Below, one piece after another: positions 19,805 through 63,707 of a stretch of DNA of 64,000 nt; position 1 is the stretch's first letter, and every line of letters begins with the position of its first letter. The translations under genes were made by a program, and so were the position numbers. The notes under the pieces are model-generated. The model did no database searches. It had not been told where the DNA came from and saw only the letters and a program-made list of their open reading frames with translations. Source of the stretch: a virus (taxonomy: Duplodnaviria > Heunggongvirae > Uroviricota > Caudoviricetes); the IMG/VR virus record IMGVR_UViG_3300011008_000020; one strand, given 5' to 3'.

Positions 19805-20071
19805 TTACTTCTTGGCCTTGTCGATCAGCGTGAGAATCGCCGCCGCCACTATGTACATACCGAGCATGACCCATAAGGGCGTGAGCGTTACCAGCCACGG
19901 CCAGTTGATGACCTTGGTGTGCTTGAGGATTACAAGCACAATCTCGACGACTTCCATGAGAACCATTCCGCCGATGAACACCCGCACGTATCTACGCTCT
20001 CGGACGTCATTGGCGTACTCTCGCTTCTTCGCAAGGAGCGGGGCGGCTTCCCTGTCAAGGCTTCTCATATC
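19805..20071 (-). CDS. small membrane protein
   Basis: Two predicted TM segments (VLMEVVEIVLVIL; WVMLGMYIVAAAILTLI). Confidence 0.45.
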   Translation of the reverse strand, partial: DMRSLDREAAPLLAKKREYANDVRERRYVRVFIGGMVLMEVVEIVLVILKHTKVINWPWLVTLTPLWVMLGMYIVAAAILTLIDKAKK

Positions 20072-20630
20072 AAAACTTCTTCCCGTGCTTGTAGGGTCTG
20101 GTCTTGTTGTATTCCGCCTTCTCGTGCAGCACACTCTCCGGCGACACGCCATGCTCGCGCAGCCAGCCGAAGATCATGTCGGTGGCGTTGGAGAAGCACC
20201 AGCCCACGTCGTAGACGCCGCGCACGTCGCCGTTGTCGATGTCCACGCCGACGTCGGTGGAATCCCCAAGGGCGAGGCCGAACACGCTGGAAATGACGGC
20301 GTGCAGCTTGCAGACCAAGATCGGCAGCGGCTCCTCCGGCGTCGCGTACACGGGCCGCTCGGACTTGGCGATGTAGGGGATGTCGTAGCGGCCCATGAAG
20401 TCGAACATCCGAATCACACAGTCGATCAGTTCGACGGCGACGCCTTCCATCTTTTCCGGCTTCTCCGGGTTGGAGTACATCATGGGCGTGCCCTTCCGCG
20501 CTTCCTCAAGCGCTTCGGACAGTTCCGAGTGAATCAGGGCAATCGTCTCGCGGGATTCACGCCCATCATCCCACCAGCCATGCGCGAGGGCGGTCTGGTG
20601 GACGTCATTGATCACGTCAACGAAATTCAT
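20070..20630 (-). CDS. MazG-like nucleotide pyrophosphohydrolase
   Basis: IALIHSELSEALEEARKG is an EExxE MazG motif; RBS GGAGGAAAAAC. Confidence 0.7.
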   Translation of the reverse strand: MNFVDVINDVHQTALAHGWWDDGRESRETIALIHSELSEALEEARKGTPMMYSNPEKPEKMEGVAVELIDCVIRMFDFMGRYDIPYIAKSERPVYATPEEPLPILVCKLHAVISSVFGLALGDSTDVGVDIDNGDVRGVYDVGWCFSNATDMIFGWLREHGVSPESVLHEKAEYNKTRPYKHGKKF

Positions 20631-20703
20631 GTTTTTCCTCCAAACTTTCATCTTTGCAGGCGTTTCGTATAAGTATAGTTATATGAAATGCGTGCAAGAC
20701 GTT

Positions 20704-21874
20704 ATTACTCCGGCAATTAAACATTGCCGCCGTGGTCATTAGAATCATCAAGTACTCGATAGGGTGCGAGAGTCGGGTGACCAAAGTATGATTGGACGTG
20801 CTTCGGGTTTTGTGACAGTGATGTCATAAAAGCATTGGCGTTCTGCTGGAGATCGGCCTCTGTCTTGGCTTGCCGTTGGGATCCAATCGTCTGTTTCAGG
20901 TCATTGTTCAGGTATTCGTCTGGATTGTACTCCGGAGAATAGGAAGGGAGGAAAAACAGCCGGATTCGATCCTTGTGTTCCTCTATCCAATCCTCTACAA
21001 GTTTCCCGTGGTGGACCTTGAGGTTGTCCAGAATGATGTAGACTTTACGAGGAATATCCTTGAGCAGCCGCTCCAGAAACTCGATCAACTTCTGCTGATT
21101 CATGCTTTCTTGACTGAACATGAAGTGCAGTTTTCCCTGATTGCTGATGGCGCTGATCATGTTGATGTGCATCTTCCTGGCTTTCGTCTTCAGCACCGGG
21201 GTACGGCCTTTCGGCGCATAGCCTCTGGCATAGTTGGCCACATTCTGTACGGCGGTCTCATCGCCCCAGAAAATCTCTGCATCTTCCTTCTTTGCCTCGC
21301 TGTGGATGGCTGGATACTCTTCCTTCAACCATCGCTGTACCGCTTCCGGCTTTTGCTCAATCGCCTGCTTCGCAGGCCGTTGCACTGTAAATCCCCACCG
21401 CTGGAGATACATCCCCACTGTGCGAATGGGCATATCAATCCCGTACTTGTCCTTGATCAGCTGGCGAACAGCATCCCGCGTCCACAGCGCACACTTCATC
21501 TTCAGTTGATCAGGATTCTTGTCGGTGATGATCCGAACAACTTCCTTCTCCTGATTTGGTGTCAGTGTACGTTTCTCGCCGGCTTTTCTGCCGCGCTTCT
21601 TTGGCTTTAGTGCTGCCATGCCTCCACTCTTGTACTTCCTGATCGTTTCCCGGACCGTTCTCTCGCTGAAGTCAGTTACTTCTATAATCTCCTCCACTGA
21701 CTTCTGTTTCTTGAAGAGTGCGATAACGGTTTTCCGCATCTGATACAGAACTTCCGGCGTGGATTTCCGATAATCAGTTTTCTCTTCGATTCCCATGGTA
21801 TTATTATACCATGTCTGAACCTAACTTGCTATATCCTGTCGGCAATATTTTGTTGCTGAGTTAATAAAGTAAAG
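20704..21874 (-). mobile_element. IS630-family insertion sequence
   Basis: Imperfect terminal inverted repeats (20706-20743 vs 21836-21872; CTCCGGCAATTAAACATTGCCGCCGTGG vs rc CTCAGCAACAAAATATTGCCGACAGGA) flank a transposase ORF; about 1.17 kb. Confidence 0.7.
20717..21796 (-). CDS. IS630-family (Tc1/mariner-like DDE) transposase
   Basis: 359 aa; N-terminal HTH; DDE_3-like core (...ILDNLKVHHG...FLPSYSPEYNPDE). Confidence 0.85.
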   Translation of the reverse strand: MGIEEKTDYRKSTPEVLYQMRKTVIALFKKQKSVEEIIEVTDFSERTVRETIRKYKSGGMAALKPKKRGRKAGEKRTLTPNQEKEVVRIITDKNPDQLKMKCALWTRDAVRQLIKDKYGIDMPIRTVGMYLQRWGFTVQRPAKQAIEQKPEAVQRWLKEEYPAIHSEAKKEDAEIFWGDETAVQNVANYARGYAPKGRTPVLKTKARKMHINMISAISNQGKLHFMFSQESMNQQKLIEFLERLLKDIPRKVYIILDNLKVHHGKLVEDWIEEHKDRIRLFFLPSYSPEYNPDEYLNNDLKQTIGSQRQAKTEADLQQNANAFMTSLSQNPKHVQSYFGHPTLAPYRVLDDSNDHGGNV

Positions 21875-21935
21875 GCGAAATTCTTGCAGAAAGGCACAAC
21901 TTGGATATGTTTCTATTGGTGTCCTTCCGTGGAAT

Positions 21936-21964
21936 ATTATAGCTTCTTTTAGTGGTATTGTCAA
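21936..21964 (-). promoter_or_regulatory. consensus sigma-A promoter TTGACA-17-TATAAT (family member 1)
   Basis: Minus strand reads TTGACAATACCACTAAAAGAAGCTATAATATTCCAC; shares flanks with four other copies. Confidence 0.65.
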
Positions 21965-22239
21965 GCGGAAGATGGCTCTATTGGTGGCTTTTTTACGGAT
22001 TTGTCAAGGTTTCCAGCCTCGAAGGAGGCGCGGAACCTTGGCAACCTGAGTTGCCATCCGGTTGCCGAAGCATAAAAACATACGGAAAGTTGTGGAAAAT
22101 ACGGAAAATTGCGCCTTTGCCAGAGTGGCCGCGCCGGTGTGCTGGTGGTGCCGGAATCCCCTGAAATCGCTGTGCAATATGCGCATAGAACGTGTAGATT
22201 ATAGAGCAATAAGCATAAAAGCAAGGGCAAATACAGGGT

Positions 22240-22277
22240 AAATACAGGAAACGGGCCGAGAATTGCTTCTCGGCCCG
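22240..22277 (-). terminator. rho-independent terminator following tRNA 3' fragment
   Basis: 10-bp stem GGGCCGAGAA/TTCTCGGCCC followed by GTTTCCTGTATTT. Confidence 0.6.
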
Positions 22278-22279
22278 TG

Positions 22280-22320
22280 TGGTCTGGGTGAGAGGATTCG
22301 AACCTCCGGCCTCTTGAACC
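22280..22320 (-). other. tRNA 3'-end fragment (T-arm plus acceptor plus CCA); att-site-like remnant
   Basis: GGAGGTTCGAATCCTCTCACCCAGACCA on the minus strand; no complementary 5' acceptor strand within 100 nt. Confidence 0.55.
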
Positions 22321-22575
22321 CCATTCAACATTTTCCAACTGCATTTTATACGCTTTTCATCGCATATCCCGCGTTATCAGCGGTATAAACCGGCGAAACT
22401 GCGTATATTCATGCGGCTTCAAAAACGTGTGGTTGCCAAGAAGTTGCCAAGCCCATACCCGACCCTGAACTCCGGCGAAAACAGCATCGCTTTAGCGCTC
22501 CATGCGCTATGTTTCCAATGGTGTCGGCACAACATCGTCTATGCATTGGTATTATACCGCCTGCTGAACGTGTTG

Positions 22576-23082: not shown

Positions 23083-23275
23083 GTTGAACCTCCCTGTCAG
23101 TGATCTTGAAGTTATGGTCACGGGTTCCGAGCTTCACCATGAGCGACATCAGCGCATTGTAGTTGTTTGATTCCAGCATCACCGTCCATGCGCTCGCCGT
23201 GTTTCTGACCCGCTGCGGAAAGTGGACGGCGCTGATCTCCTCAAGGCTTGACCGCCGCAGCAGTTTATACTTCAT
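23072..23275 (-). CDS. hypothetical protein (67 aa)
   Basis: ORF. Confidence 0.45.
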   Translation of the reverse strand: MKYKLLRRSSLEEISAVHFPQRVRNTASAWTVMLESNNYNALMSLMVKLGTRDHNFKITDREVQHEQ

Positions 23276-24090
23276 TGTTCAGGTGCCCCTTTCCTGGCTG
23301 CGGTGAGAACGGCATCGAGCAGCTTCTCCGTCTTGTCACGGGTGAGCCTTCGTCCGCAGCACATCTTCCCTTCCGGGCAGTAGAGCAGATATTCGCACTG
23401 CGGGACAAGATGTGCAGCAAAGTCAGCATTGACTTTTTCGACAACACCCTTTATTTCCCATGCCAGTTCGTTGATAAACTCCTGCGCCCGGTTGCAGAGC
23501 CGCTTATGGCAGAAGTGAATCAGGGCTTCCGGCGTGAAGCCGATCACGAGGTCTGTGGTTGTGGCGCGTGGCATGACCATGTTGACGGCCTCGACAGCCT
23601 CCTTCATGGTGCATCCGCCTCGCTCCAAAATGGCCTTGATGTCGCTGCGGGCATCCCTGATCTGCTGCATGATGGCGTAATATCGCTTGCTCGCCTCTTC
23701 GTTGCCCCTGATTGCTTCCGGGATGACATAGCTGAACGCGCCTTTGTCGATGTAGCGGAAACTCGCCATGTTCTTGACGATGTTGGCCGGATTTTCGTTG
23801 ATGATGTCATATTGCTGCGCTTCGGCCCACATATAGTTGTCCTGCATCTCGAATGGCACCCATGTCCCGATTTCATGCCTCATGCACTGTTCAGCGGTGC
23901 CACGGTCGATTCCTCCAATGCGGAATTTTATGTACTCACAACGAGAGCCGGACATATGGCCGGACTTTTGGCACGCAGCACCGACCGCCTTTGCGCGGTC
24001 TATGGGTGTATCGTAACAGACGCGGGCGAACTCGCCGTGGTTCTTTTCCAGATTCTCAAGCACTCCTTGGTTGATGATTTCGACCTTCAT
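23272..24090 (-). CDS. ThyX-family (flavin-dependent thymidylate synthase-like) protein with non-canonical RHE motif
   Basis: Aligns by eye to ThyX (MKVEIINQGV...; FRIGGIDRGTAEQCMRHEIGTW vs F.i.g.sRa..hQlvRHRiaS; ...HFCHKRLCNRAQEFINELAWEI). RHR is replaced by RHE and the serine is absent. Confidence 0.6.
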   Translation of the reverse strand: MKVEIINQGVLENLEKNHGEFARVCYDTPIDRAKAVGAACQKSGHMSGSRCEYIKFRIGGIDRGTAEQCMRHEIGTWVPFEMQDNYMWAEAQQYDIINENPANIVKNMASFRYIDKGAFSYVIPEAIRGNEEASKRYYAIMQQIRDARSDIKAILERGGCTMKEAVEAVNMVMPRATTTDLVIGFTPEALIHFCHKRLCNRAQEFINELAWEIKGVVEKVNADFAAHLVPQCEYLLYCPEGKMCCGRRLTRDKTEKLLDAVLTAARKGAPEQ

Positions 24091-24124
24091 GGTATCACCT
24101 CCGTGTGATGTTGTCGGTCGTATG

Positions 24125-26352: not shown

Positions 26353-26802
26353 CTATCCTTGAGCCTTTGCGGCGCGGTCGTACATGACGATGCTGCCCGC
26401 CGTGGAGACGTTGTAGCAGTAGTCGCCAATGAGCTGCACCGTCTCCCGGCAGCGTTCCAAGATTTCCTGTGGGACGCCGTAATCCTCCGCGCCCAGGAGG
26501 TAGATGCACCTGTCGCGGTGGTGGTAGGCTTCCAGCGGGATGCTGTTCTCTGCCAGCTCCACGGCGACGACAGGGCAATCATATGGGACGTGCCGGAAGA
26601 AGTCATCAATGTCCTCGTAGTGGAACAGTGGGATGTGGCGCGGGGCCTTGATGGTATCGGAGCATTGATGCTTGTACCGGCGACCAATCGTAAAGATGAA
26701 GTCAGCGCCGAGGATGGCGGCAGAGCGCCACAGCGTCCCGATGTTCTTTTCCTTCTTTGCATGGTAGATGCCGATTCCGAAATAGCCCTTTTTCGTGATC
26801 AT
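26353..26802 (-). CDS. SPOUT-class (SpoU/TrmL-like) RNA 2'-O-methyltransferase
   Basis: GIGIYHAKKEKNIGTLWRSAAILGADFIFTIG ... NVSTAGSIVMYD parallel TrmL motifs. Confidence 0.65.
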   Translation of the reverse strand: MITKKGYFGIGIYHAKKEKNIGTLWRSAAILGADFIFTIGRRYKHQCSDTIKAPRHIPLFHYEDIDDFFRHVPYDCPVVAVELAENSIPLEAYHHRDRCIYLLGAEDYGVPQEILERCRETVQLIGDYCYNVSTAGSIVMYDRAAKAQG

Positions 26803-36701: not shown

Positions 36702-37715
36702 TCAAAACTGGAATGTGATCTGCCCCTCGATACTGGCCTTCGGCTTCTTCGCGGCCTTCCGGGGCGTTCTCTGAATGGTGTCATTCTTAACTGGTTGTTT
36801 TGACACTGTTGGTGTCGCTTCGGGCAAAAGGAAAGAAGCCTGTGCCAGTTCAGCGATTCCCGGCTCGATCTTCGGTGTCTCCGGCTCCGGGGTCTGTGCT
36901 GCTGCGGGTTCTTCCTTCGCAGGCTTGGTGTCGCCGAAAACGTTCATTATGTAGCGGAACCGCTGCCGGGCGATCTCGATTTCCCGGCGCTCATGCCACG
37001 TCTGCTCGAAGAACATCGGCGTGTACCAGCATCGCTCGGAGTTCTCGCCGAAAAGTACGTGGCCGGTCATGGGGGTGTAGAGTGAATCGCCGATCACGAC
37101 GTAGCCCGCGCAGCCGAGAAGGGATAGCTGGATGTAGCACATCAGGGCGGTGGTGCTGTCGATCTCCTGCGCGGCGAACATGATCTGGTATGGATAGTTG
37201 ATGCCATACTCGACGCTCGCCTCCGCCGCAGCGATCAGGGTCGCGCCCGCGCCGCAGGCACAGTCCATGCAAGAGAACCACCCATTCCGGTCGATTGCCG
37301 CCTGCAACTTGTCCTTGTCGCTGTCGATGGTAATCCGTGCCATCATCTGGCAGATGTTGTATGGCGTGAAGAACTGGCCTCCGAGGTTGTTTCCAAGGTC
37401 GAGATTCATAAACATGTCGCCGAGGAAATCCCCGAAAGAGCCACGCTCAGTCTTATCGACCACGTTCTGGTGAATGATTGCGAGCAACGCGGAGAATTTC
37501 TCGATCTCTGCCGTGTCGTATTTCTCCACGATGGACATGTAGGTTTTCTCCCTGCTCTCGCGGAAGCGGTCATCCACGCAGTTCGAGATGGCGATGGCGA
37601 TGCACCAGACCATATCCTTCCAGACTTCCCAGATGTTGTACTTCCCGGTGAGGGAGTTTATGATCTTGATGAAATCGCGCTGAAACTCGTCCTTGCCGGT
37701 ATATGTCCGGGCCAT
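36702..37715 (-). CDS. HsdM/N6-MTase-like protein lacking recognizable NPP(F/Y) catalytic motif
   Basis: Motif X GQFFTP and motif I MDCACGAGATL are present. The motif IV position reads GDSLYTPM. Low-complexity P/E/K-rich C-terminus. Confidence 0.55.
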   Translation of the reverse strand: MARTYTGKDEFQRDFIKIINSLTGKYNIWEVWKDMVWCIAIAISNCVDDRFRESREKTYMSIVEKYDTAEIEKFSALLAIIHQNVVDKTERGSFGDFLGDMFMNLDLGNNLGGQFFTPYNICQMMARITIDSDKDKLQAAIDRNGWFSCMDCACGAGATLIAAAEASVEYGINYPYQIMFAAQEIDSTTALMCYIQLSLLGCAGYVVIGDSLYTPMTGHVLFGENSERCWYTPMFFEQTWHERREIEIARQRFRYIMNVFGDTKPAKEEPAAAQTPEPETPKIEPGIAELAQASFLLPEATPTVSKQPVKNDTIQRTPRKAAKKPKASIEGQITFQF

Positions 37716-45008: not shown

Positions 45009-45497
45009 TCATTTGTTTGCCTCCATGAGTTCCGGGTTGTCCCACACGTTTCCAACCACAGTCCACTCTTCGATTCCTCCGATGTCCTCGAAAGGCAGGT
45101 CGTCCGGGATTGCTCCGTCGAATCCAGCCGGGAGCTTCTCATTGTAGCTCCATCCGCCGTGCTCTGCGTTCCAACTGAGGAAACCGTATGTGAGGCGCTC
45201 CGGCTCATGGTCAATGTCGAGGTGTGCTGCGATGATGTCGCCCTCGAAAATCCGCACTCCATTCTTGTCTCGGATGCCGGTGTACTGACTGACTGTTTTG
45301 TCCTTCACCGCGTATCTCTGAACCAGAGTGAACCACCCGCCATTTGAATGTGCCCTCGTCGCAATCCAAGAACGATAGATACCCTTTTGCGTTTGGAAAT
45401 ATCGGTGCGTTGCCTCGATGTAACTGCCGAAAACCCATTCTCCGTTATCTGTGCGCTTGCCTCGAAAGACAATCCTTCTCACGCTTTCACCTCCCAC
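45009..45497 (-). CDS. YopX-family phage protein
   Basis: RGKRTDNGEWVFGSYIE matches YopX N-terminal signature. Confidence 0.6.
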   Translation of the reverse strand: MGGESVRRIVFRGKRTDNGEWVFGSYIEATHRYFQTQKGIYRSWIATRAHSNGGWFTLVQRYAVKDKTVSQYTGIRDKNGVRIFEGDIIAAHLDIDHEPERLTYGFLSWNAEHGGWSYNEKLPAGFDGAIPDDLPFEDIGGIEEWTVVGNVWDNPELMEANK

Positions 45498-46273
45498 GGA
45501 AAATCCTGTCGGAAGTCATCGCCCATGAGTTCCCTGATGCTGTCCTTCATAAAAATCGGCCTGCCGGAGTATTCGCACTCCATGAGGATTGCGTCAATCC
45601 ACTCCTTCTTCGGCTGCACCTTGTTCTTGCGGCCTCCCGTCTCTGCACCGACGATCACCCAGTCGGCAGGGACGTGGGAGCAGAAGCCCGGCTGCATCGG
45701 CGCGAGCATCGGCTCGATGGACACGAACAGGTTCTTGACGAGACACTCGTCCGCGTGGTGGAAGCGCCAGAGCATCTTCTGGCTGGTGGCCGTGTAGCCG
45801 TACCAATGTTCATGCGGCAGCAGGCCTTTCGCTGCCAGCTCGTTGTAGCGGTTCGGGTTCTTGGTGAGGAACAGGTATCTGTGCTGCTTCGCCTTCGCAC
45901 AGGCGTCGAACACTTCCTGAATCCACTCGTCGGGCACCCACTCGCCAAAGACGTCCGACATCGAGCCGACGAATATGGTCTTCGGGTTCTTCCATTTCTG
46001 CGGGATGTCCAGACGGTAGCGGTGGAAGGTCGGCGCAAAGCCGAAGGGGTAGGGCGTCGGCACGATCTGGCCGTTCTTCTGCTCTCGGCACTGAATCTCT
46101 TCCAGCACATACAGACCGTTTTCCTCGTGCCACGTGCCCGGCTTATGATCGGGAAGGAATCCCTTAAACCTGCGGGCCATGCCGCGAGCATAGCAGTAGG
46201 CGCAGCCGTGGTTACAGCCGGTGATCGGGTTGAATGAGGCGTCGGCCCAGTCGATCTTGGTGGTCTGTCCCAT
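45479..46273 (-). CDS. phage Gp37/Gp68 (DUF5131) family protein with CX3CX2C radical-SAM-type motif
   Basis: WADASFNPITGCNHGCAYCYA. Confidence 0.65.
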   Translation of the reverse strand: MGQTTKIDWADASFNPITGCNHGCAYCYARGMARRFKGFLPDHKPGTWHEENGLYVLEEIQCREQKNGQIVPTPYPFGFAPTFHRYRLDIPQKWKNPKTIFVGSMSDVFGEWVPDEWIQEVFDACAKAKQHRYLFLTKNPNRYNELAAKGLLPHEHWYGYTATSQKMLWRFHHADECLVKNLFVSIEPMLAPMQPGFCSHVPADWVIVGAETGGRKNKVQPKKEWIDAILMECEYSGRPIFMKDSIRELMGDDFRQDFPWEVKA

Positions 46274-46832
46274 TATGCCTGCTCCTTTCTGATCGCGTTC
46301 TCCGGCGTCAGGCCGTCCAACTGCATCCGGCTCCCTGTCGCTTCCTCTTGCCCACAGTATTTCCCCGTGTAGGGCTTGGAGACGTCAACGGCGTCCATGT
46401 AGACGAGCTGGGTCACGGGGTAGCCGGGATAGAGGAGGATTGTGCAAGGGCTGTCGTTCTTGAGTTCCAGTGTGATGTGGCCGGGGAATCCGGGGTCAAC
46501 GAAGCCCGCGTTCTGCACCGTCAGACCGGCCCGACCAATGGAGGAGCGCCCCTGAACGAAAGCCGCCGCGTCAATCGGCACGATGATGGATTCAATGGTC
46601 GTCGCCAGCATGAACTCGCCGGGCATGATCGGGATGGTCTCGCCGTCCTTGACCTCAAAGCGGGTGTATTTCATTTCCTCGCCGAGCCGGACGATCTGGC
46701 TGGGAACCGGCTTGAGGAAGGTGTGGCCCAGCCGGAGGTTGATGCTGGCCGGATTGACGCTGCTGTCATTCGTCCCGGAGATCATACCGTTCTCAATGAG
46801 ACGCTTCAAACGCTTATCTCCCCAAATCATTT
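46273..46832 (-). CDS. dcd: dCTP deaminase (Dcd/dUTPase fold)
   Basis: MIWGDKRLKRLIENGMI...NPASINLRLGH...GRSSIGRAGL...ITLELKN parallels Dcd. Confidence 0.75.
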
Positions 46833-47083
46833 CTTTTCCCCTCTTTCTCGGCGTCAGCGATGCCCTCCTTGATGCCATCGCTGACCATTTTCCCACACAT
46901 GGATAATGGCCCACGCTGACATGCAACCTTGAGGATTCGCCGCTCATAGTGCCGGTTGTCTTCGCCCTTCTCACGCTGCACGCCGTATAGCTTGCCGATG
47001 GTGTTCAGCGTCATGCCGTGCATCGCGGACTTGAGCGTGTTGTAGGTGTGTCTCCGCGCAAGGCGCGTGATTATATCTGCCAT
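46814..47083 (-). CDS. hypothetical protein
   Basis: 89 aa ORF. Confidence 0.45.
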   Translation of the reverse strand: MADIITRLARRHTYNTLKSAMHGMTLNTIGKLYGVQREKGEDNRHYERRILKVACQRGPLSMCGKMVSDGIKEGIADAEKEGKRNDLGR

Positions 47084-55609: not shown

Positions 55610-57592
55610 TTATTCGGTGAGCATGAGCTGGGTCTGCACGTCAATCAGGTAATCGTCACGATTGGCGACGATCTTCTCGTAGGCCTCCCGGCCTTGGAAC
55701 TCGTCCACGACCCTGCGGCTTTCATCGTCCATCTCGTCATAGCTGACGTTGCCGTAGGACGGCGGCAACCATGCCTTATTGCGCCCGACGTAGATGTTCA
55801 AGCGATCAACAATCTTGCGGTCATGGAAGACGATGTGGCAGGTTCCCTTCTTGTAGAACGTGACGGTGAAGTATTTGCAGACGATGTTCTTTGTCTGTCC
55901 GCTGGTCGCCGCAGCACCGAGGACGCTGGTCAGGTCGCACTCGCCAGTCTCGCCCCTGTCCAGATAGTTGAATGCCTTTTCCAGATCGTCGAGGATGGCG
56001 AAGCAGGCGCGGGTGTCCAGCCCTTCCAGTATGTCGCGGTAGTTGCCGCGCTTGTCCGGCTTATACTTCCTTGCGAAGCACCCCCATGTCGGGATGATGC
56101 AGCGCATGTTGACATAATGGGCCTTGTTGGTTTTCCAGCCGTCGAAATAGTGGATGTTGCCATTCTTGAGGTTTTCGTCGAACGTGTGCTTGTCGGAGAG
56201 CATCTCGAAGCAGTGCAGGATTGCGCCCTCCACGCAGACTGTGAGCTGGCCCATGATGCGATTGAGCACCTGCTGGATGTTGAACCGGGAGAACTCGTAG
56301 TCCTTCATTTCGGTGATCAGCTCGTCATAGGCGCTTTTCATGGTCGCGGTCAGCTTGTTGCGGAGCATCGGGAGGGCAAACAGGTCATGCCAGAACTTCG
56401 AGCGCACCCGGCTCAGATACTTGTTCACGTCCTCCTCGTCACAGCGGCTTCCACAGTCGGAATTACCAATCGACAGCGTGATGATCGGGCTGTCAGAGCC
56501 GCTGCCGCAGATGTGGGGAGCCACGCCGTTGTAGGCACGCATGAGTGCGATTCCCGTGTCACAGGTCAGCTCATACTCCCGTAGCAGACGCTCGATGTTG
56601 TCAGACGGCGCGATGGCGTTCTTCACATCCGTCTCGAACTTCTGGGCCTGTGCCTTGCGCAGGTTCTCATAGATTCCATCATCGACGAAAGAGCGCGGGA
56701 TGGTCACGTTGATCAGCGCCACGTCCACCTTTGCCCGGCGCTGCGCTTTGGCGAAGGCGTTCTCCATGAACTTGATGCTCGCACCGGCTTCGGTCAGTTT
56801 CCGCAGAAGCAGCTTCCGGGTGTTGGTGTAGGGGTTGCGGATGGTCTCGGCGTTCAGAATGCACGCGATCTGCCCGCCGTGCTCGCACAGTTCCAGCGCG
56901 TGGAGCAGGTGCATGTCGCCGTCAGAGAAGGGCGGGTTCATAATATAGAGGTCGTAGCGCCTGCGGGTGTTGAACGTCAGGAAGTCGTCGTGGACGACGC
57001 GGTAGCCCTTCGACATGAGGATGGCTTGGAGGTTCGGGTCGATCTCGACGCAATCCACGTTCAGCTTGCCGTTCTCCGCGTAGTCGTACCTCGTGATGCG
57101 GCGATAGAAGCCGCGCTTGGCAGACCTCGCGTGTTCGATCAGGTCGCCCTTACCGGCGCTCGGCTCCAACACAGTCTCGACGCCACGCCACGTCACACCG
57201 GCCAGCAGCTTGCCCGCAACGTTCGACGGCGTTGGGTAGAAGTCGGCGTCGATGGACGGCAGGTAGGCCACGGGCGCTTGCCGGGCCTGCCGGGCGGTGT
57301 GCGCTTTGTAGTAGGCCTCCGCATGCTTCGTCAGCGCGACCTTGGCAGCGTAGAGGGTGTTGGTCGGCTTCTCGGTGTAGTGGATGTAGGACAGTCGCCT
57401 CCCGCCGTCGTAGCGCTGGTCGTCCTCATACACCTGTATGCTGTAATGAGAGCGACTGTAGGAGGGCGAATCGTTGTAGTCGATGCGGCCCACGCGCACG
57501 CCATGGAGGAAGCACGCCCAGCGCTGATTTGGTATCGGGTGGTCAGAGGGTTCCAGCATCGAAAGGTCGTAGAGCTGGATGTGGTCGGTCAT
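55610..57592 (-). CDS. N6-adenine DNA methyltransferase (NPPF) with large C-terminal domain
   Basis: Motif I LEPSAGKGDL; motif IV DLYIMNPPF; RBS CAGGAGG then MTDHIQLYD. Confidence 0.8.
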   Translation of the reverse strand: MTDHIQLYDLSMLEPSDHPIPNQRWACFLHGVRVGRIDYNDSPSYSRSHYSIQVYEDDQRYDGGRRLSYIHYTEKPTNTLYAAKVALTKHAEAYYKAHTARQARQAPVAYLPSIDADFYPTPSNVAGKLLAGVTWRGVETVLEPSAGKGDLIEHARSAKRGFYRRITRYDYAENGKLNVDCVEIDPNLQAILMSKGYRVVHDDFLTFNTRRRYDLYIMNPPFSDGDMHLLHALELCEHGGQIACILNAETIRNPYTNTRKLLLRKLTEAGASIKFMENAFAKAQRRAKVDVALINVTIPRSFVDDGIYENLRKAQAQKFETDVKNAIAPSDNIERLLREYELTCDTGIALMRAYNGVAPHICGSGSDSPIITLSIGNSDCGSRCDEEDVNKYLSRVRSKFWHDLFALPMLRNKLTATMKSAYDELITEMKDYEFSRFNIQQVLNRIMGQLTVCVEGAILHCFEMLSDKHTFDENLKNGNIHYFDGWKTNKAHYVNMRCIIPTWGCFARKYKPDKRGNYRDILEGLDTRACFAILDDLEKAFNYLDRGETGECDLTSVLGAAATSGQTKNIVCKYFTVTFYKKGTCHIVFHDRKIVDRLNIYVGRNKAWLPPSYGNVSYDEMDDESRRVVDEFQGREAYEKIVANRDDYLIDVQTQLMLTE

Positions 57593-57612
57593 GCGTTCAT
57601 CGCCTCCTGTTT

Positions 57613-57861
57613 CTATTTGTTGACGGCCTGCCAGAGCAGGTCTTCCAGATTGTTCATGGCGCACTTGGCCTTGATCAGTTCCAAGTCCGGGATGCTGTCC
57701 AGCATGTCCTTCGTTTTCTTGACCATGTTATAGACCTCGCCAACGGTCGGCCTCGTGTGCTGGACGGCGGGTGCCGGGCGCTGCGGCTGCTTCTTCTTCG
57801 CCGCAGGCTTGCGCTTGCGCGACTTCTTCTTGAATATTCCGAACATCCTCTCGTTCTCCAT
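57613..57861 (-). CDS. basic hypothetical protein
   Basis: 82 aa; K/R-rich. Confidence 0.45.
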   Translation of the reverse strand: MENERMFGIFKKKSRKRKPAAKKKQPQRPAPAVQHTRPTVGEVYNMVKKTKDMLDSIPDLELIKAKCAMNNLEDLLWQAVNK

Positions 57862-58338
57862 TTACAGGTTGTGCTTCTCGGCGTAGATTTGCAGGGCGTC
57901 AATGACAGCCTTGAGGCTTCCCAGCTTTTTCGCCACGTTCTGGAACGCAGTAACTTCATCCGGCCTCACGCGGCCATCCGACGCGATCTGCAGCAGGGCC
58001 TTTGCCACGTCGCCCACGCCCTGCGCTTCGTTGAACAGCTTGATGGCCGTCCGCTCGAAGCACTCGTCCTGTACCGGGTTCACGCGGCCACAGCCGATAG
58101 GGCAGATCATGGCGCAGTAACTCGTCAGCAGTTCCGGCGTGTTGTAGAGCTGCGCCATGCGCCGTGCGTTGATGTTGCTCGGCAGCACCTCGTCACGTTC
58201 CCACCGCCCGATGGTCTCCGGCGAGGAGACTTCCAGCGCCTCCGCCGCACCCTGCTGGGTCGCCAGCTTCTCGTTGTAGGCCGCAGCGTTCAAACGCGCT
58301 TCTCGGAGTTGTTCTCCAAAGGTTTTTCCAACATTCAA
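57862..58338 (-). CDS. XRE-family HTH regulator with C-terminal domain
   Basis: N-terminal FGEQLREARLNAA...LATQQGAAEALEVSSPETIGRWERDEVLPS. Confidence 0.6.
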   Translation of the reverse strand: MNVGKTFGEQLREARLNAAAYNEKLATQQGAAEALEVSSPETIGRWERDEVLPSNINARRMAQLYNTPELLTSYCAMICPIGCGRVNPVQDECFERTAIKLFNEAQGVGDVAKALLQIASDGRVRPDEVTAFQNVAKKLGSLKAVIDALQIYAEKHNL

Positions 58339-60529: not shown

Positions 60530-60955
60530 ATGTCAATTTTCGGTGAGAGGCTGTATGAGGCCCGCAGGCGGCAGCGGATTACTCAAGGCGATCTGGCAGA
60601 TCGCGCAGGCGTCACCCGGTCGGCCATCGGTGGGTATGAGAAGATGGGAAAGGATGCCAGCTATGAAGTATTGGTGAAGATCGCGCAGGCACTCGGCGTG
60701 ACGACTGACTACCTGCTCGGCATGGACGACAATGCTGGCTGGCATAAGCGCACCGGCGTCGCCGAGAAGTTCTACGATCTTGAGCTTTACTATGACCGTG
60801 CGCCAGACGAGCAGAAAGCCACCATAGACAGCCTGCTCGTGGAGGTGGACAAGTTGCTCGCCTTCTTCCTCGCGTCGCCGGACACGGCGCGGCTGGGCCA
60901 TCTGCGTGACCTCCTCGCGGACGCCCGCAGGCTCATGGGTGATGGCAATGAGTGA
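60530..60955 (+). CDS. XRE-family HTH regulator with C-terminal domain
   Basis: RBS GGAAGGAG then MSIFGERLYEARRRQRITQGDLADRAGVTRSAIGGYE. Confidence 0.65.
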   Translation: MSIFGERLYEARRRQRITQGDLADRAGVTRSAIGGYEKMGKDASYEVLVKIAQALGVTTDYLLGMDDNAGWHKRTGVAEKFYDLELYYDRAPDEQKATIDSLLVEVDKLLAFFLASPDTARLGHLRDLLADARRLMGDGNE

Positions 60956-62138
60956 GAACAAGCCGTTCGTCGTCTACGGCGACTATGGGCGCGACAGCGA
61001 GGGCAAGCGCATCCGAAAGAAGTTCACCGGCGTGGACGAGGTGGAGGCCCGGTTGAAGAAGCGGGAGTATGAGAAGGAACGCGCCATTGGCCTGCACAAG
61101 TACGCCGACACCATGACGGTGCGCCAGTGGACGGACATCTGGATGAACGCCTACCGCTCCGAGATCAAGGGCACGAACAAGGTCTCCTATGACACATACG
61201 TCGGGCGGCTGAACGCAGAGATCGGCCACATGAAGATCAAGGATGTGCAGAACATCCACCTGTACCGATGCTTGTTGACCATGAAAGGAATGTCGAAGTC
61301 GTCCCTCACAAAGTACCGCATGGTGATTCAGCAGGTATTCCGAAAGGCCCGGCAGAACAAGGTGCTCCCGGACGACCCAAGTGAAGACCTCGAACTGCCG
61401 AACGGCACCAGCGGGACGCACCGGGCGCTTGAGAAGTGGGAGATCGACCTGATCTTCGAGAATTGGCAGGTCTATAACAGCGGCCTATGGGTGATGATTA
61501 TGCTGCTGGCCGGGCTTCGGCGCGGCGAGCTGGTGGCCCTCGACTGGGACTACGTGGACATGAAGGAGCGCAACATCGTCGTCGAGCGTGCCGCCGAGAT
61601 CGTGACGAATCAGGCCGTCATCAAGGATTCCGCCAAGACAGAGGCCGGGACGAGGGCGCTGCCGATCTGCGACAAGCTGTTCGATGCGCTGTCCACCGTG
61701 CCGGAGGCGGAGCGCAAGGGGCCGGTGTGCCACAGCAAGGGCGGCGTGCGCCTGACGCAATCCTCATATTCGTGGGGGATGCGCACCTTCAACCAAGCGA
61801 TGGAGCGGATTCTGAACGGCGAGCCGCCAATCCAGCAGGGACGCCGGAAGGATTGCGAGGACAAGAAGAAGGGCCAGAAGGAAAAGGAGGCGCAGGAGCG
61901 CAAGAGGTTTTCCATCCGTGGACACGATCTGCGGTTCACCTACGCGACCGCGCTCTACGACGCGGGGGTCGATGTCAAATCTGCCATGTACTACCTCGGC
62001 CACAGCGACATCCGCATGACAATGAGCCTATACACTCAGCTTTCAAAGGAACGCGAGAACCTGTCCCGCGCACAGGCGATCACCTTCCTCGACAACTGGC
62101 TGAAACCCAAGAACGACGACGAAAAAGACGAAGATTGA
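60948..62138 (+). CDS. int: tyrosine-type site-specific integrase
   Basis: Catalytic residues R (LRRGELVALDW), H-x-x-R (HDLRFTYA) and Y (SLYTQL); overlaps the upstream gene's stop. Confidence 0.9.
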   Translation: MSENKPFVVYGDYGRDSEGKRIRKKFTGVDEVEARLKKREYEKERAIGLHKYADTMTVRQWTDIWMNAYRSEIKGTNKVSYDTYVGRLNAEIGHMKIKDVQNIHLYRCLLTMKGMSKSSLTKYRMVIQQVFRKARQNKVLPDDPSEDLELPNGTSGTHRALEKWEIDLIFENWQVYNSGLWVMIMLLAGLRRGELVALDWDYVDMKERNIVVERAAEIVTNQAVIKDSAKTEAGTRALPICDKLFDALSTVPEAERKGPVCHSKGGVRLTQSSYSWGMRTFNQAMERILNGEPPIQQGRRKDCEDKKKGQKEKEAQERKRFSIRGHDLRFTYATALYDAGVDVKSAMYYLGHSDIRMTMSLYTQLSKERENLSRAQAITFLDNWLKPKNDDEKDED

Positions 62139-62264: not shown

Positions 62265-62777
62265 ATGAGCGCAGGCGACACGCGGCAGCAGATTCGAGCC
62301 ATGACGCTTGTCGCCCGGCAAGTACTCGGAGACGGCTTCGGCTATTACCTCACCCAGCGGCCACCCGCGCCCGGAGCGCATCCGAATGACGCGCACGCCG
62401 TCGTCTCGTTGGACGCGAAGATGTGGCATGACGGAATCTGTCAGGAGATTTGGGGCTGGGTTTGCTACCGGCGACAGCTCACCAACGCGGAGGTCGAAGA
62501 ATACGAGCTGCTCCCGGACGAGGACAACCCCGTGAGGTATCAACAATATGGCATCGTGCTGTATGAGCGTGTGAAGGACGCGGACGGGCGCTCAAGGATG
62601 CGGAAGACGCCGGTGACGGAAGGCGGCAGCAGAGGCGAGCGGTTCATCACCAGCTACAAGGGCAAGGCCTTCGCATTGATCGACTTCCTGAACAAGAAGG
62701 CGGGGGCGAAGCTGAATCTAAAGGTCGTCAAGCTGCCGCAGAATGGAACAACGGACGCAGCACCGACACGACAATGA
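62265..62777 (+). CDS. hypothetical protein (moron between int and the element boundary)
   Basis: RBS GAAGGGAGAC then MSAGDTRQQ; 170 aa. Confidence 0.55.
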   Translation: MSAGDTRQQIRAMTLVARQVLGDGFGYYLTQRPPAPGAHPNDAHAVVSLDAKMWHDGICQEIWGWVCYRRQLTNAEVEEYELLPDEDNPVRYQQYGIVLYERVKDADGRSRMRKTPVTEGGSRGERFITSYKGKAFALIDFLNKKAGAKLNLKVVKLPQNGTTDAAPTRQ

Positions 62778-63625: not shown

Positions 63626-63707
63626 GGGAATGTAGCGTAATTTGGTAACGCACACAGGCGGTGCACCTAACCTGCGGTTGTCGGTTCGAATCCGAACATT
63701 CCCACCA
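63626..63707 (+). other. tRNA-like element 2 (7-bp acceptor, D-arm, T-arm GGTTCGAATCC, ACCA; no canonical anticodon arm)
   Basis: GGGAATG/CATTCCC acceptor; D-stem GCGT/ACGC; variable-arm-like AACC-tgc-GGTT. Confidence 0.35.

Follow-up and report, generated by a model that had tools for sequence, protein, structure and literature searches.

The 64,000-nucleotide stretch of IMG/VR record IMGVR_UViG_3300011008_000020, referred to here as the window, is from a temperate phage or prophage and encodes a 272-residue protein of the flavin-dependent thymidylate synthase (ThyX) family. We propose that this protein is probably an active synthase of thymidine monophosphate (dTMP), that it belongs to a charge-swapped class of ThyX with a four-cysteine (Cys4) site, and that it supplies dTMP together with a dCTP deaminase and a pyrophosphatase encoded in the same window. 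The reaction would be the familiar one, in which deoxyuridine monophosphate (dUMP), methylenetetrahydrofolate (CH2-THF) and reduced flavin give dTMP, with the nucleotide site and the chemistry unaltered. What would differ is the lining of the pocket for the phosphates and ribityl chain of flavin adenine dinucleotide (FAD). There, acidic and basic residues appear to have traded places: E58 of the Thermotoga maritima enzyme (Tm) corresponds to R50, and R165, contributed by the neighbouring subunit, to E188. The third residue of the RHR motif, R80 in Tm, would then have been freed to vary, and in the lineage of the window's protein it is Glu.

Family membership and active-site residues

The protein is a divergent member of the ThyX family over its full length. 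Its open reading frame (ORF) is intact and starts with ATG, 7 nt downstream of a GGAGG Shine-Dalgarno sequence, a strong ribosome-binding site, and JGI calls an identical 272-residue ThyX on two further contigs. The match to Pfam Thy1 (PF02511) has an E-value of 1.1e-22 and a score of 81.2 bits, against a cut-off of 24.8, and runs over profile positions 10-188 of 191. The protein also matches phrog_85, 'thymidylate synthase', and public pipelines label its relatives 'thymidylate synthase ThyX/(FAD)'. An earlier note on this DNA, made from the letters alone, had aligned the protein by eye to ThyX over its full length; the profile matches bear this out, and so does the comparison of folds. An AlphaFold2 model, built on 54 homologs and with a mean predicted local distance difference test score (pLDDT) of 75, matches in Foldseek the PDB structures of T. 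maritima, Mycobacterium tuberculosis (Mtb) and Corynebacterium glutamicum ThyX with probability 1.0. The template modelling (TM) scores are moderate, about 0.45-0.53 at sequence identities of 15-20%, because the model contains two low-confidence loops. The top 50 PDB structure matches listed are ThyX without exception, and the viral protein structure models matched, again with probability 1.0, are ThyX too. Sequence searches of PDB with the protein and with its family profile found the M. tuberculosis and C. glutamicum enzymes.

Residues were mapped by hidden Markov model (HMM) alignment, in which both the protein and its family profile were set against the Mtb and C. glutamicum enzymes, and by a broad MAFFT set; the T. 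maritima reference sequence is identical to that of PDB 1KQ4/1O26. The segment RHEIGTWVPFE is present as residues 71-81, and R71-H72-E73 aligns with the canonical RHR (Mtb R95-H96-R97, Tm R78-H79-R80). The change from RHR to RHE that the earlier note reported is thus real, with E73 on the third motif position, and RHE recurs in all 120 homologs listed (55-81% identity). The serine is another matter. It had been called absent because seven residues counted past RHE reach E81, but the alignment places it at S110, inside K106-N-M-A-S-F-R-Y113, which corresponds to 'LSQRF/Y' of Mtb and C. glutamicum and to S88-G-R90-Y91 of Tm; SFRY, likewise, is present in 120 of the 120. S110 lies far downstream of RHE because a 28-residue insertion, T76-N103, displaces it. 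In place of the literal RHR-X7-8-S motif we find R71-H72-E73-X36-S110, that is, one substitution and one insertion, with the Ser and the following R-Y kept. Accurate realignment, then, restores the serine and leaves the Glu in third place. The epithet 'degenerate' does not suit positions that are invariant under strong conservation.

The other equivalences are H45 with Tm H53, S47 with Mtb S71, R63 with Mtb R87, R112 and Y113 with Tm R90 and Y91, and R197 with Tm R174. In Mtb ThyX, the RHR motif, with Ser71 and Arg190 of a second subunit as partners, hydrogen-bonds three parts of FAD: the adenosine monophosphate (AMP) phosphate, the ribityl and the flavin mononucleotide (FMN) phosphate. The main role of the RHR arginines is to hold the phosphates of FAD; dUMP is contacted by Arg95, Arg199, Arg87, Ser105 and Arg107, with Tyr108 as a lid (PMC6514825). 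In T. maritima ThyX, dUMP is activated by R174, and methylene transfer is assisted by S88, R90 and Y91 (PMC8316439). In the complex of the ThyX paralog PolB, the phosphate ligands are R166 (equivalent to Tm R147), R82 and H83, and the uracil readers are R193 (Tm R174) and R98 (PMC5003785).

The catalytic and substrate-binding set (H45, R71, S110, R112, Y113, R197 and R63) is complete and is invariant in 54 close homologs. All base-reading and catalytic residues are therefore kept, plus the phosphate Arg of the Mtb type, R63. A loss of Tm R74 was considered and in part set aside, since the phosphate Arg of the Mtb enzyme, R87, persists as R63. The full list of invariant residues in the 54-sequence alignment is H45, S47, R50, R63, E67, Q68, R71, H72, E73, K106, N107, S110, R112, Y113, N170, R175, E188, R197, C199, R201, C232, C238 and C245. 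The arginines that clamp the FAD phosphates in the solved enzymes (Tm R80 and R165, Mtb R97 and R190) are both Glu here, E73 and E188, and the clamp as such is not found. The three changes R80-to-E73, R165-to-E188 and R147-to-N170 all fall in the phosphate-rich pocket common to FAD and dUMP.

The charge-swapped class and the four-cysteine site

HMMER, run exhaustively over 1.84 billion cluster representatives, gave 926 relatives at E<=1e-3. Key alignment columns were tabulated for the best 150 of the 926, and 100 of these could be scored at positions 50, 73 and 188 (Tm E58, R80 and R165). The canonical E/R/R is found in 50 of the 100, and 44 have a swapped state, R/(E,S,K,H,Q,N,V,T,D,G)/(E or Q); about six are mixed. 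Position 50 is R in 43 of 43 swapped representatives versus E in 40 of 40 canonical ones, and position 188 is E or Q in 43 of 43 versus R in 40 of 40. In a neighbour-joining tree, the swapped set is monophyletic (43/43, with zero intruders). Its members have a mean identity of 35% and a minimum of 22%, and are as diverged as the canonical set, which indicates that the class has long been maintained by selection. Throughout it, H45, Q68, R71, S110, R197 and C199 are retained in 43 of 43, R63 in 42, Y/F113 in 41 and R112 in 39, and the four cysteines in about 43. Because R80-to-E is coupled to E58-to-R and R165-to-E across a monophyletic and deeply diverged class, RHE reads as one of three coupled changes (E58-to-R50, R80-to-E73 and R165-to-E188) in a rewired pocket, and not as decay.

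It is tempting to propose that a canonical salt bridge, which would join E58 and R165, is replaced by one of reversed polarity, R50-E188, with R50 taking over phosphate binding, so that the flavin would still be held. We suggest this pairing because the two positions covary and because, in the Mtb enzyme, the same FAD groups are touched by Arg190 and by a residue of the same subunit, Ser71, that precedes the counterpart of E58 by three positions.

Several points weigh against reading the protein as a working dTMP synthase with such a pocket. Its score against the NCBIfam thyX equivalog TIGR02170, 48.8 bits, does not reach the trusted cut-off of 87.9. In protein and profile searches, the swapped class has no representative in PDB, the best PDB sequence E-value being only 1e-4, and in the AlphaFold2 model the pLDDT is below 50 in the 28-residue insertion and in the Cys loop (residues 233-244). 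The basic-to-acidic changes at E67, E73 and E188, together with R147-to-N, strip positive charge from the three-phosphate pocket, and R50 and R175, the latter described below, may not fully compensate for what is lost. One paper counts Tm R80 among the residues that bind dUMP directly (PMC3498832). Finally, the Fisher p-values of about 1e-27 for the coupling are descriptive and do not independently prove that the residues are physically coupled, since the swap arose in one ancestral event.

The score under the equivalog cut-off, along with the literal departure from RHRX7S, a filter for genuine ThyX (PMC2826268), would also suit an inactive ThyX-like pseudoenzyme that binds nucleotide or flavin and has a regulatory or structural role. 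So would the top Foldseek match (E=6.6e-7), the C. glutamicum 'atypical' ThyX (PDB 3FNN/3GE9), which is dispensable for thymidylate synthesis. That protein, whose structure the depositors call atypical, is cellular and has a canonical RHR, and what makes it atypical has nothing to do with the swap. Pseudoenzymes lose catalytic residues, whereas here all are invariant across the clade at 22-35% identity. The gene is placed in replication and nucleotide modules. Inteins, moreover, are elements that target enzymes both essential and active, and they are found in members of the clade, among them P0127, itself of the swapped class. A pseudoenzyme is, in our judgement, very improbable.

Besides the swap, the protein has a putative metal site. 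C199 lies two residues past the catalytic Arg, and C232, C238 and C245 are in the C-terminal tail. The four are invariant in about 150 representatives (P0121-P0270), canonical and swapped alike. Of the solved enzymes, only that of T. maritima was aligned at those columns; it lacks them, as do the enzymes of Bacillus phages PBC1 and DZ1. By this conservation we place the window's protein in a large, mostly phage and metagenomic 'Cys4' clade of ThyX that holds both canonical and swapped classes. The canonical sisters in the clade (metagenomic; for instance P0164, P0179, P0185 and P0202) are, like the window's protein, largely phage- or metagenome-borne, and share with it C199/C232/C238/C245, R201 and length at about 30-37% identity. 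They differ in having E50/R73/R188 and an RHR-to-Ser spacing of 7-8 residues, and some contain inteins or a fused nucleoside monophosphate (NMP) kinase, which in two canonical members is guanylate-kinase-like. The site would tie the C-terminal tail to the helix of the catalytic Arg, and would do so in these sisters as well.

Alternatively, the Cys4 site and the acidic pocket may reflect another cofactor or electron supply for the same reaction. The pocket would bind the flavin nucleotide by way of a divalent metal, or take FMN instead of FAD, and an iron-sulfur (Fe-S) cluster at Cys4 would feed the flavin with electrons that ferredoxin or flavodoxin provides, as an adaptation to strictly anaerobic hosts of the gut or rumen. 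E67, E73 and E188 do sit where canonical enzymes bind phosphate, the cysteines are invariant and close to the catalytic Arg, and the viral contigs that carry the relatives are of gut or rumen type. In addition, 16 loci of related large phages encode a cysteine-desulfurase-like class-V aminotransferase at a distance of about 2.5 kb from ThyX. However, Cys4 is present in the canonical E/R/R sisters too and hence is unlinked to the swap, and its spacing, C-x32-C-x5-C-x6-C, is diagnostic of neither Zn nor Fe-S. Position 73 varies within the swapped class (E, S, K, H, Q and others), which is hard to square with a fixed metal triad, and literature support was not found. We consider this explanation unlikely.

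A bolder proposal would make the whole class mechanistically distinct, with the flavin nucleotide and/or the substrate on a carboxylate-metal site in place of the Arg clamp and an Fe-S Cys4 wiring the flavin to ferredoxin or flavodoxin; the insertion subgroup described below may then also take another phosphorylation state of deoxyuridine, such as dUTP from the phage dCTP deaminase. We are decidedly sceptical of this, but if it were true, phages that infect anaerobes could produce their thymidine nucleotides with no need for NADPH or for the customary kinase steps. In the searchable literature, neither the swapped class nor the Cys4 site nor the insertion is described, and our searches on Cys-cluster or Fe-S ThyX, RHR variants, the E58/R165 contact and Nmad4 or DUF5131 returned nothing usable.

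The insertion subgroup and its substrate

To the swap, the subgroup of the window's protein adds E67, a 28-residue loop that precedes the substrate-recognition peptide, and what looks like a relocated dUMP-phosphate arginine. The spacing from RHE to Ser is 36 residues, versus 7-8 in the sister and canonical groups, and the sequence of the insertion is conserved (G75, P79, Y86 and P101). Among the tabulated relatives, a 24-36-residue insertion, E67 and N170 with R175 are confined to this subgroup. At the position of the phosphate Arg (Tm R147, PolB R166) the protein has N170, and an Arg is found five residues downstream, at 175, where others have N or M. The pairs at 170/175 are N/R in nine relatives and Q/R in one, versus R/(N,M,Q,I,L) in about 120. 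It looks as if the arginine has been relocated rather than lost.

The RHR-to-Ser loop that holds the insertion is also an intein site in relatives. In P0127, P0191, P0220, P0231, P0246 and P0255 the stretch between the RHR motif and the motif serine is interrupted by an intein, in some cases one that has an HNH or LAGLIDADG endonuclease domain. Long 'fusion' representatives were considered as informative domain fusions and rejected, being mostly ThyX split by inteins.

Changes at the phosphate site (R147-to-N170, E67 and E73) and a conserved loop adjoining the recognition peptide could also mark a neofunctionalised subgroup, one that acts on another substrate (UMP, dUDP or dUTP with Mg, or a nucleoside) or makes another product (5-hydroxymethyl-dUMP), and so feeds a non-canonical base into phage DNA. 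There is a precedent in PolB, whose specificity is altered by extra loops (PMC5003785), and the window includes an Nmad4 gene, DUF5131 and several methyltransferases. PolB and SVIThyX2 (PDB 4P5A) methylate UMP in polyoxin biosynthesis and, like the window's protein, have lineage-specific loops near the active site. PolB differs from it in keeping RHR and all phosphate arginines, in having no Cys4 and in being encoded in an antibiotic gene cluster. Compared by their described positions, the PolB loops (117-131 and 192-201, with Tyr124/Tyr126 in Loop 1) come after the recognition peptide, and ours comes before it, hence elsewhere than Loop 1 or Loop 2. Neither of those loops nor a closer similarity to PolB, which would mark a PolB-type UMP/dUMP C5-methylase, was found; indeed, PolB (4p5a) is absent among the PDB sequence matches, in which the Mtb and C. 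glutamicum enzymes are present. Moreover, the uracil-reading and catalytic residues R197, R112, S110, Y113 and R71 are invariant, R63 is kept, and the phosphate Arg is seemingly not lost but moved to R175. A change of substrate or product is, for us, quite unlikely, and the genomic setting given in the next section also argues against it.

Set beside the canonical enzymes of T. maritima (TM0449, PDB 1O26) and M. tuberculosis (Rv2754c, PDB 2AF6/3GWC), the window's protein has the same full-length Thy1 fold and domain, and shares the equivalents of H53, Mtb S71, the first two RHR residues, S-x-R-Y, R174 and Mtb R87. It departs from them in E58-to-R, R80-to-E, R165-to-E, R147-to-N with a new Arg five residues later, and H178-to-R, as well as in the 28-residue insertion between RHE and Ser, a C-terminus extended by about 45 residues, and the four-Cys site. 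The best annotated matches in INPHARED among cultured phages, the ThyX proteins of Bacillus phages PBC1 and DZ1 and of Clostridium phage phiCP34O, have 24-31% identity and, unlike the window's protein, the canonical GH-x-S-x-x-E and RHR-x8-S.

Genomic setting and significance

The features of the window are collected in Table 1. It includes the genes that the earlier note had listed around ThyX: the dCTP deaminase, the MazG-like pyrophosphatase, the Gp37/Gp68 protein (DUF5131) with a radical-SAM-like N-terminus, and the methyltransferase-like genes. A dCTP deaminase, an NTP pyrophosphatase and ThyX make up the textbook route from dCTP through dUTP and dUMP to dTMP. It is likely that the deaminase (DCD) supplies dUTP/dUMP to the ThyX pathway, and likely, too, that the MazG-like enzyme supplies dUMP from dUTP; the three would jointly turn dCTP into dTMP during replication of the prophage. 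The pyrophosphatase surfaced through PHROGs alone, and a MazG of the Bacillus-phage type was not found in the window by BLAST or phmmer. Cultured Bacillus phages PBC1 and DZ1 are annotated with their canonical ThyX in a replication and nucleotide module, beside MazG-type pyrophosphatase and dNMP kinase genes.

From the neighbouring genes and the motif, the earlier note had gone on to suggest a non-canonical pyrimidine modification. This step we do not follow: the serine is present, the pocket appears rewired, the residues for uracil reading and methylene transfer are invariant, and the ordinary dTMP route is complete. Phage thymidine hypermodification based on 5-hydroxymethyldeoxyuridine (5-hmdU) uses ThyA-family enzymes (PMC8989533), and among the roughly 70 annotated ORFs of the window we found no ThyA-family dUMP hydroxymethylase, 5-hmdU DNA kinase or transferases. 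In the vicinity of ThyX we likewise found neither a glycosyltransferase or kinase gene nor any further gene for hypermodification. Neither ThyA nor a second ThyX is encoded within the window, which makes the protein its sole thymidylate synthase.

Homologs of the protein lie on 48 IMG/VR contigs (many of them 100-220 kb) and on seven contigs of metagenome-assembled genomes (MAGs), 55 loci in all. The window's ThyX neighbours are not conserved around them, and in none of the 55 is there a conserved partner gene, which argues against an obligate multi-enzyme modification pathway. Synteny is found within one large-phage lineage only, in which ThyX stands among genes for Pol III alpha, NAD-ligase, UvrD, a metallophosphatase and the class-V aminotransferase; DUF5131 and YopX are near ThyX homologs in three related loci. 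The gene thus moves by itself and settles among replication and nucleotide genes, which is easier to reconcile with a self-sufficient thymidylate synthase than with one part of a multi-enzyme pathway for base modification. To us the sequences offer no sign of a modified base, and none need be invoked.

In IMG/VR contigs L042-L056 of 120-220 kb, the class-V aminotransferase gene and genes for PARP catalytic-domain and Macro-domain proteins follow about 2.5-6.5 kb downstream of the ThyX homolog, and inteins are present in the Pol III alpha and UvrD genes. The MAG labels of the GTDB contigs (L003-L009), namely Oscillospiraceae, Bacteroidales, Alistipes, Clostridiales, Bacilli and Absconditabacterales, are mutually inconsistent; the phage contigs are therefore probably mis-binned, and their taxonomy is unusable as host evidence.

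Table 1. Positions of the ThyX gene, its motifs and other features of the window.
Feature	Positions	Strand	Basis or remark
ThyX-family gene, 272 aa, assigned to the charge-swapped Cys4 class	23272-24090	minus	Intact ORF; Pfam Thy1; Foldseek; JGI call
Flavin-pocket motif G-H45-M-S47-G-S-R50	23941-23958	minus	H45 and S47 canonical (Tm H53, Mtb S71); R50 replaces Glu (Tm E58)
R63...E67-Q68...R71-H72-E73	23872-23904	minus	R63 is the dUMP-phosphate Arg (Mtb R87); E73 replaces Tm R80/Mtb R97
Lineage-specific insertion T76-N103, 28 aa, between RHE and the recognition peptide	23782-23865	minus	Alignment spacing
Substrate-recognition peptide K106-N-M-A-S110-F-R112-Y113	23752-23775	minus	Equivalent to Tm N85..S88-G-R90-Y91
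N170...R175	23566-23583	minus	Phosphate Arg (Tm R147/PolB R166) is Asn; Arg five residues downstream where others have N/M
E188	23527-23529	minus	In place of the neighbouring subunit's FAD-phosphate Arg (Tm R165/Mtb R190); HMM alignment
R197-L-C199-N-R201	23488-23502	minus	R197 is the uracil-activating catalytic Arg (Tm R174); C199 is the first putative Cys4 ligand
C-terminal Cys cluster C232-x5-C238-P-E-G-x3-C244-C245	23356-23397	minus	With C199 (23494-23496), putative Cys4 metal site, Zn or Fe-S
Nmad4 ('nucleotide modification associated domain 4') protein, 113 aa	15734-16075	minus	Pfam, 80.8 bits; about 7 kb from ThyX
HNH_3 endonuclease + sigma-70 region 4/helix-turn-helix (HTH) + Myb-like DNA-binding domains, 453 aa	18415-19776	minus	
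MazG-like NTP pyrophosphatase	20070-20651	minus	phrog_3301/9236/5658 'pyrophosphatase', E=2.7e-29 (PHROG only)
IS630-type DDE_3 transposase gene	20717-21796	minus	Inserted between the ThyX block and the MazG-like gene
SpoU methyltransferase-like gene	26353-26802		
N6_Mtase methyltransferase-like gene	36702-37715		
DUF5131 (Gp37/Gp68), radical-SAM-like N-terminus	45479-46273	minus	
dCTP deaminase-like gene (DCD)	46273-46974	minus	Pfam DCD PF22769, 108 bits
SbcD-like metallophosphatase + SbcC/SMC-like ATPase, 1283 aa	49102-52953	minus	
DUF4942 methyltransferase-like gene	55610-57664		
HTH repressor-like gene	57862-58338		
Tyrosine integrase	60906-62138	plus	
DarA_C (defence against restriction) domain protein	62265-62777	plus	
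tRNA-His gene	63626-63707	plus	Likely attachment site

On the strand opposite ThyX, an ORF of 286 aa (23248-24108, plus), longer than the ThyX gene and covering it whole, was rejected as a shadow by analysis of GC content at third codon positions (GC3). The window has a GC content of 57%, and its real genes have a GC3 of about 0.8, as against the high first-position content (GC1) of antisense shadows. Such high-GC1 ORFs overlie many genes of the window and can mislead gene calling by their length. Gene calling retrained after the GC3 analysis gave 79 genes, nearly all on the minus strand.

The small genes that flank ThyX encode a DUF7694 protein, a Bro-N/zinc-ribbon protein and the SpoU-family methylase. 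The 10 kb around ThyX gave zero DNA match by megablast to 50,697 deposited phage genomes. The transposase gene has an atypically low GC3, 0.61 versus about 0.8; neither terminal inverted repeats nor an Rfam match was found for this element, and beyond the gene some 780 bp (21797-22575) are without a convincing ORF. The DCD gene is translationally coupled to DUF5131, its stop sharing position 46273 with the DUF5131 start, and YopX follows, the three being tightly packed in 45009-46974 on the minus strand. The SbcD-like and SbcC-like parts, usually two separate proteins, are joined here in one polypeptide. The right end, with the integrase, the DarA_C protein and the tRNA-His gene, is probably the border of the prophage and its attachment site.

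Published work and annotation pipelines alike define ThyX by a 'strictly conserved' RHRX7S and the FAD arginine clamp, and a study of ThyX evolution used the motif as a filter, removing sequences that deviated from it by more than two dissimilar residues (PMC2826268). About half of the nearest 150 sequence clusters, nearly all from gut- or rumen-type phage, nevertheless form one old clade in which the charges of the clamp are inverted. The ThyX family itself is known; the swapped class within it appears to be previously undescribed and largely phage-borne. Motif filters and TIGR02170 miss or under-call enzymes of this class, and its Cys4 site is explained by no solved ThyX structure. The interest of the finding is moderate and lies in the enzymology and annotation of ThyX, not in evidence for a new DNA base: with the swapped clade, nature offers an experiment on flavin binding by ThyX.

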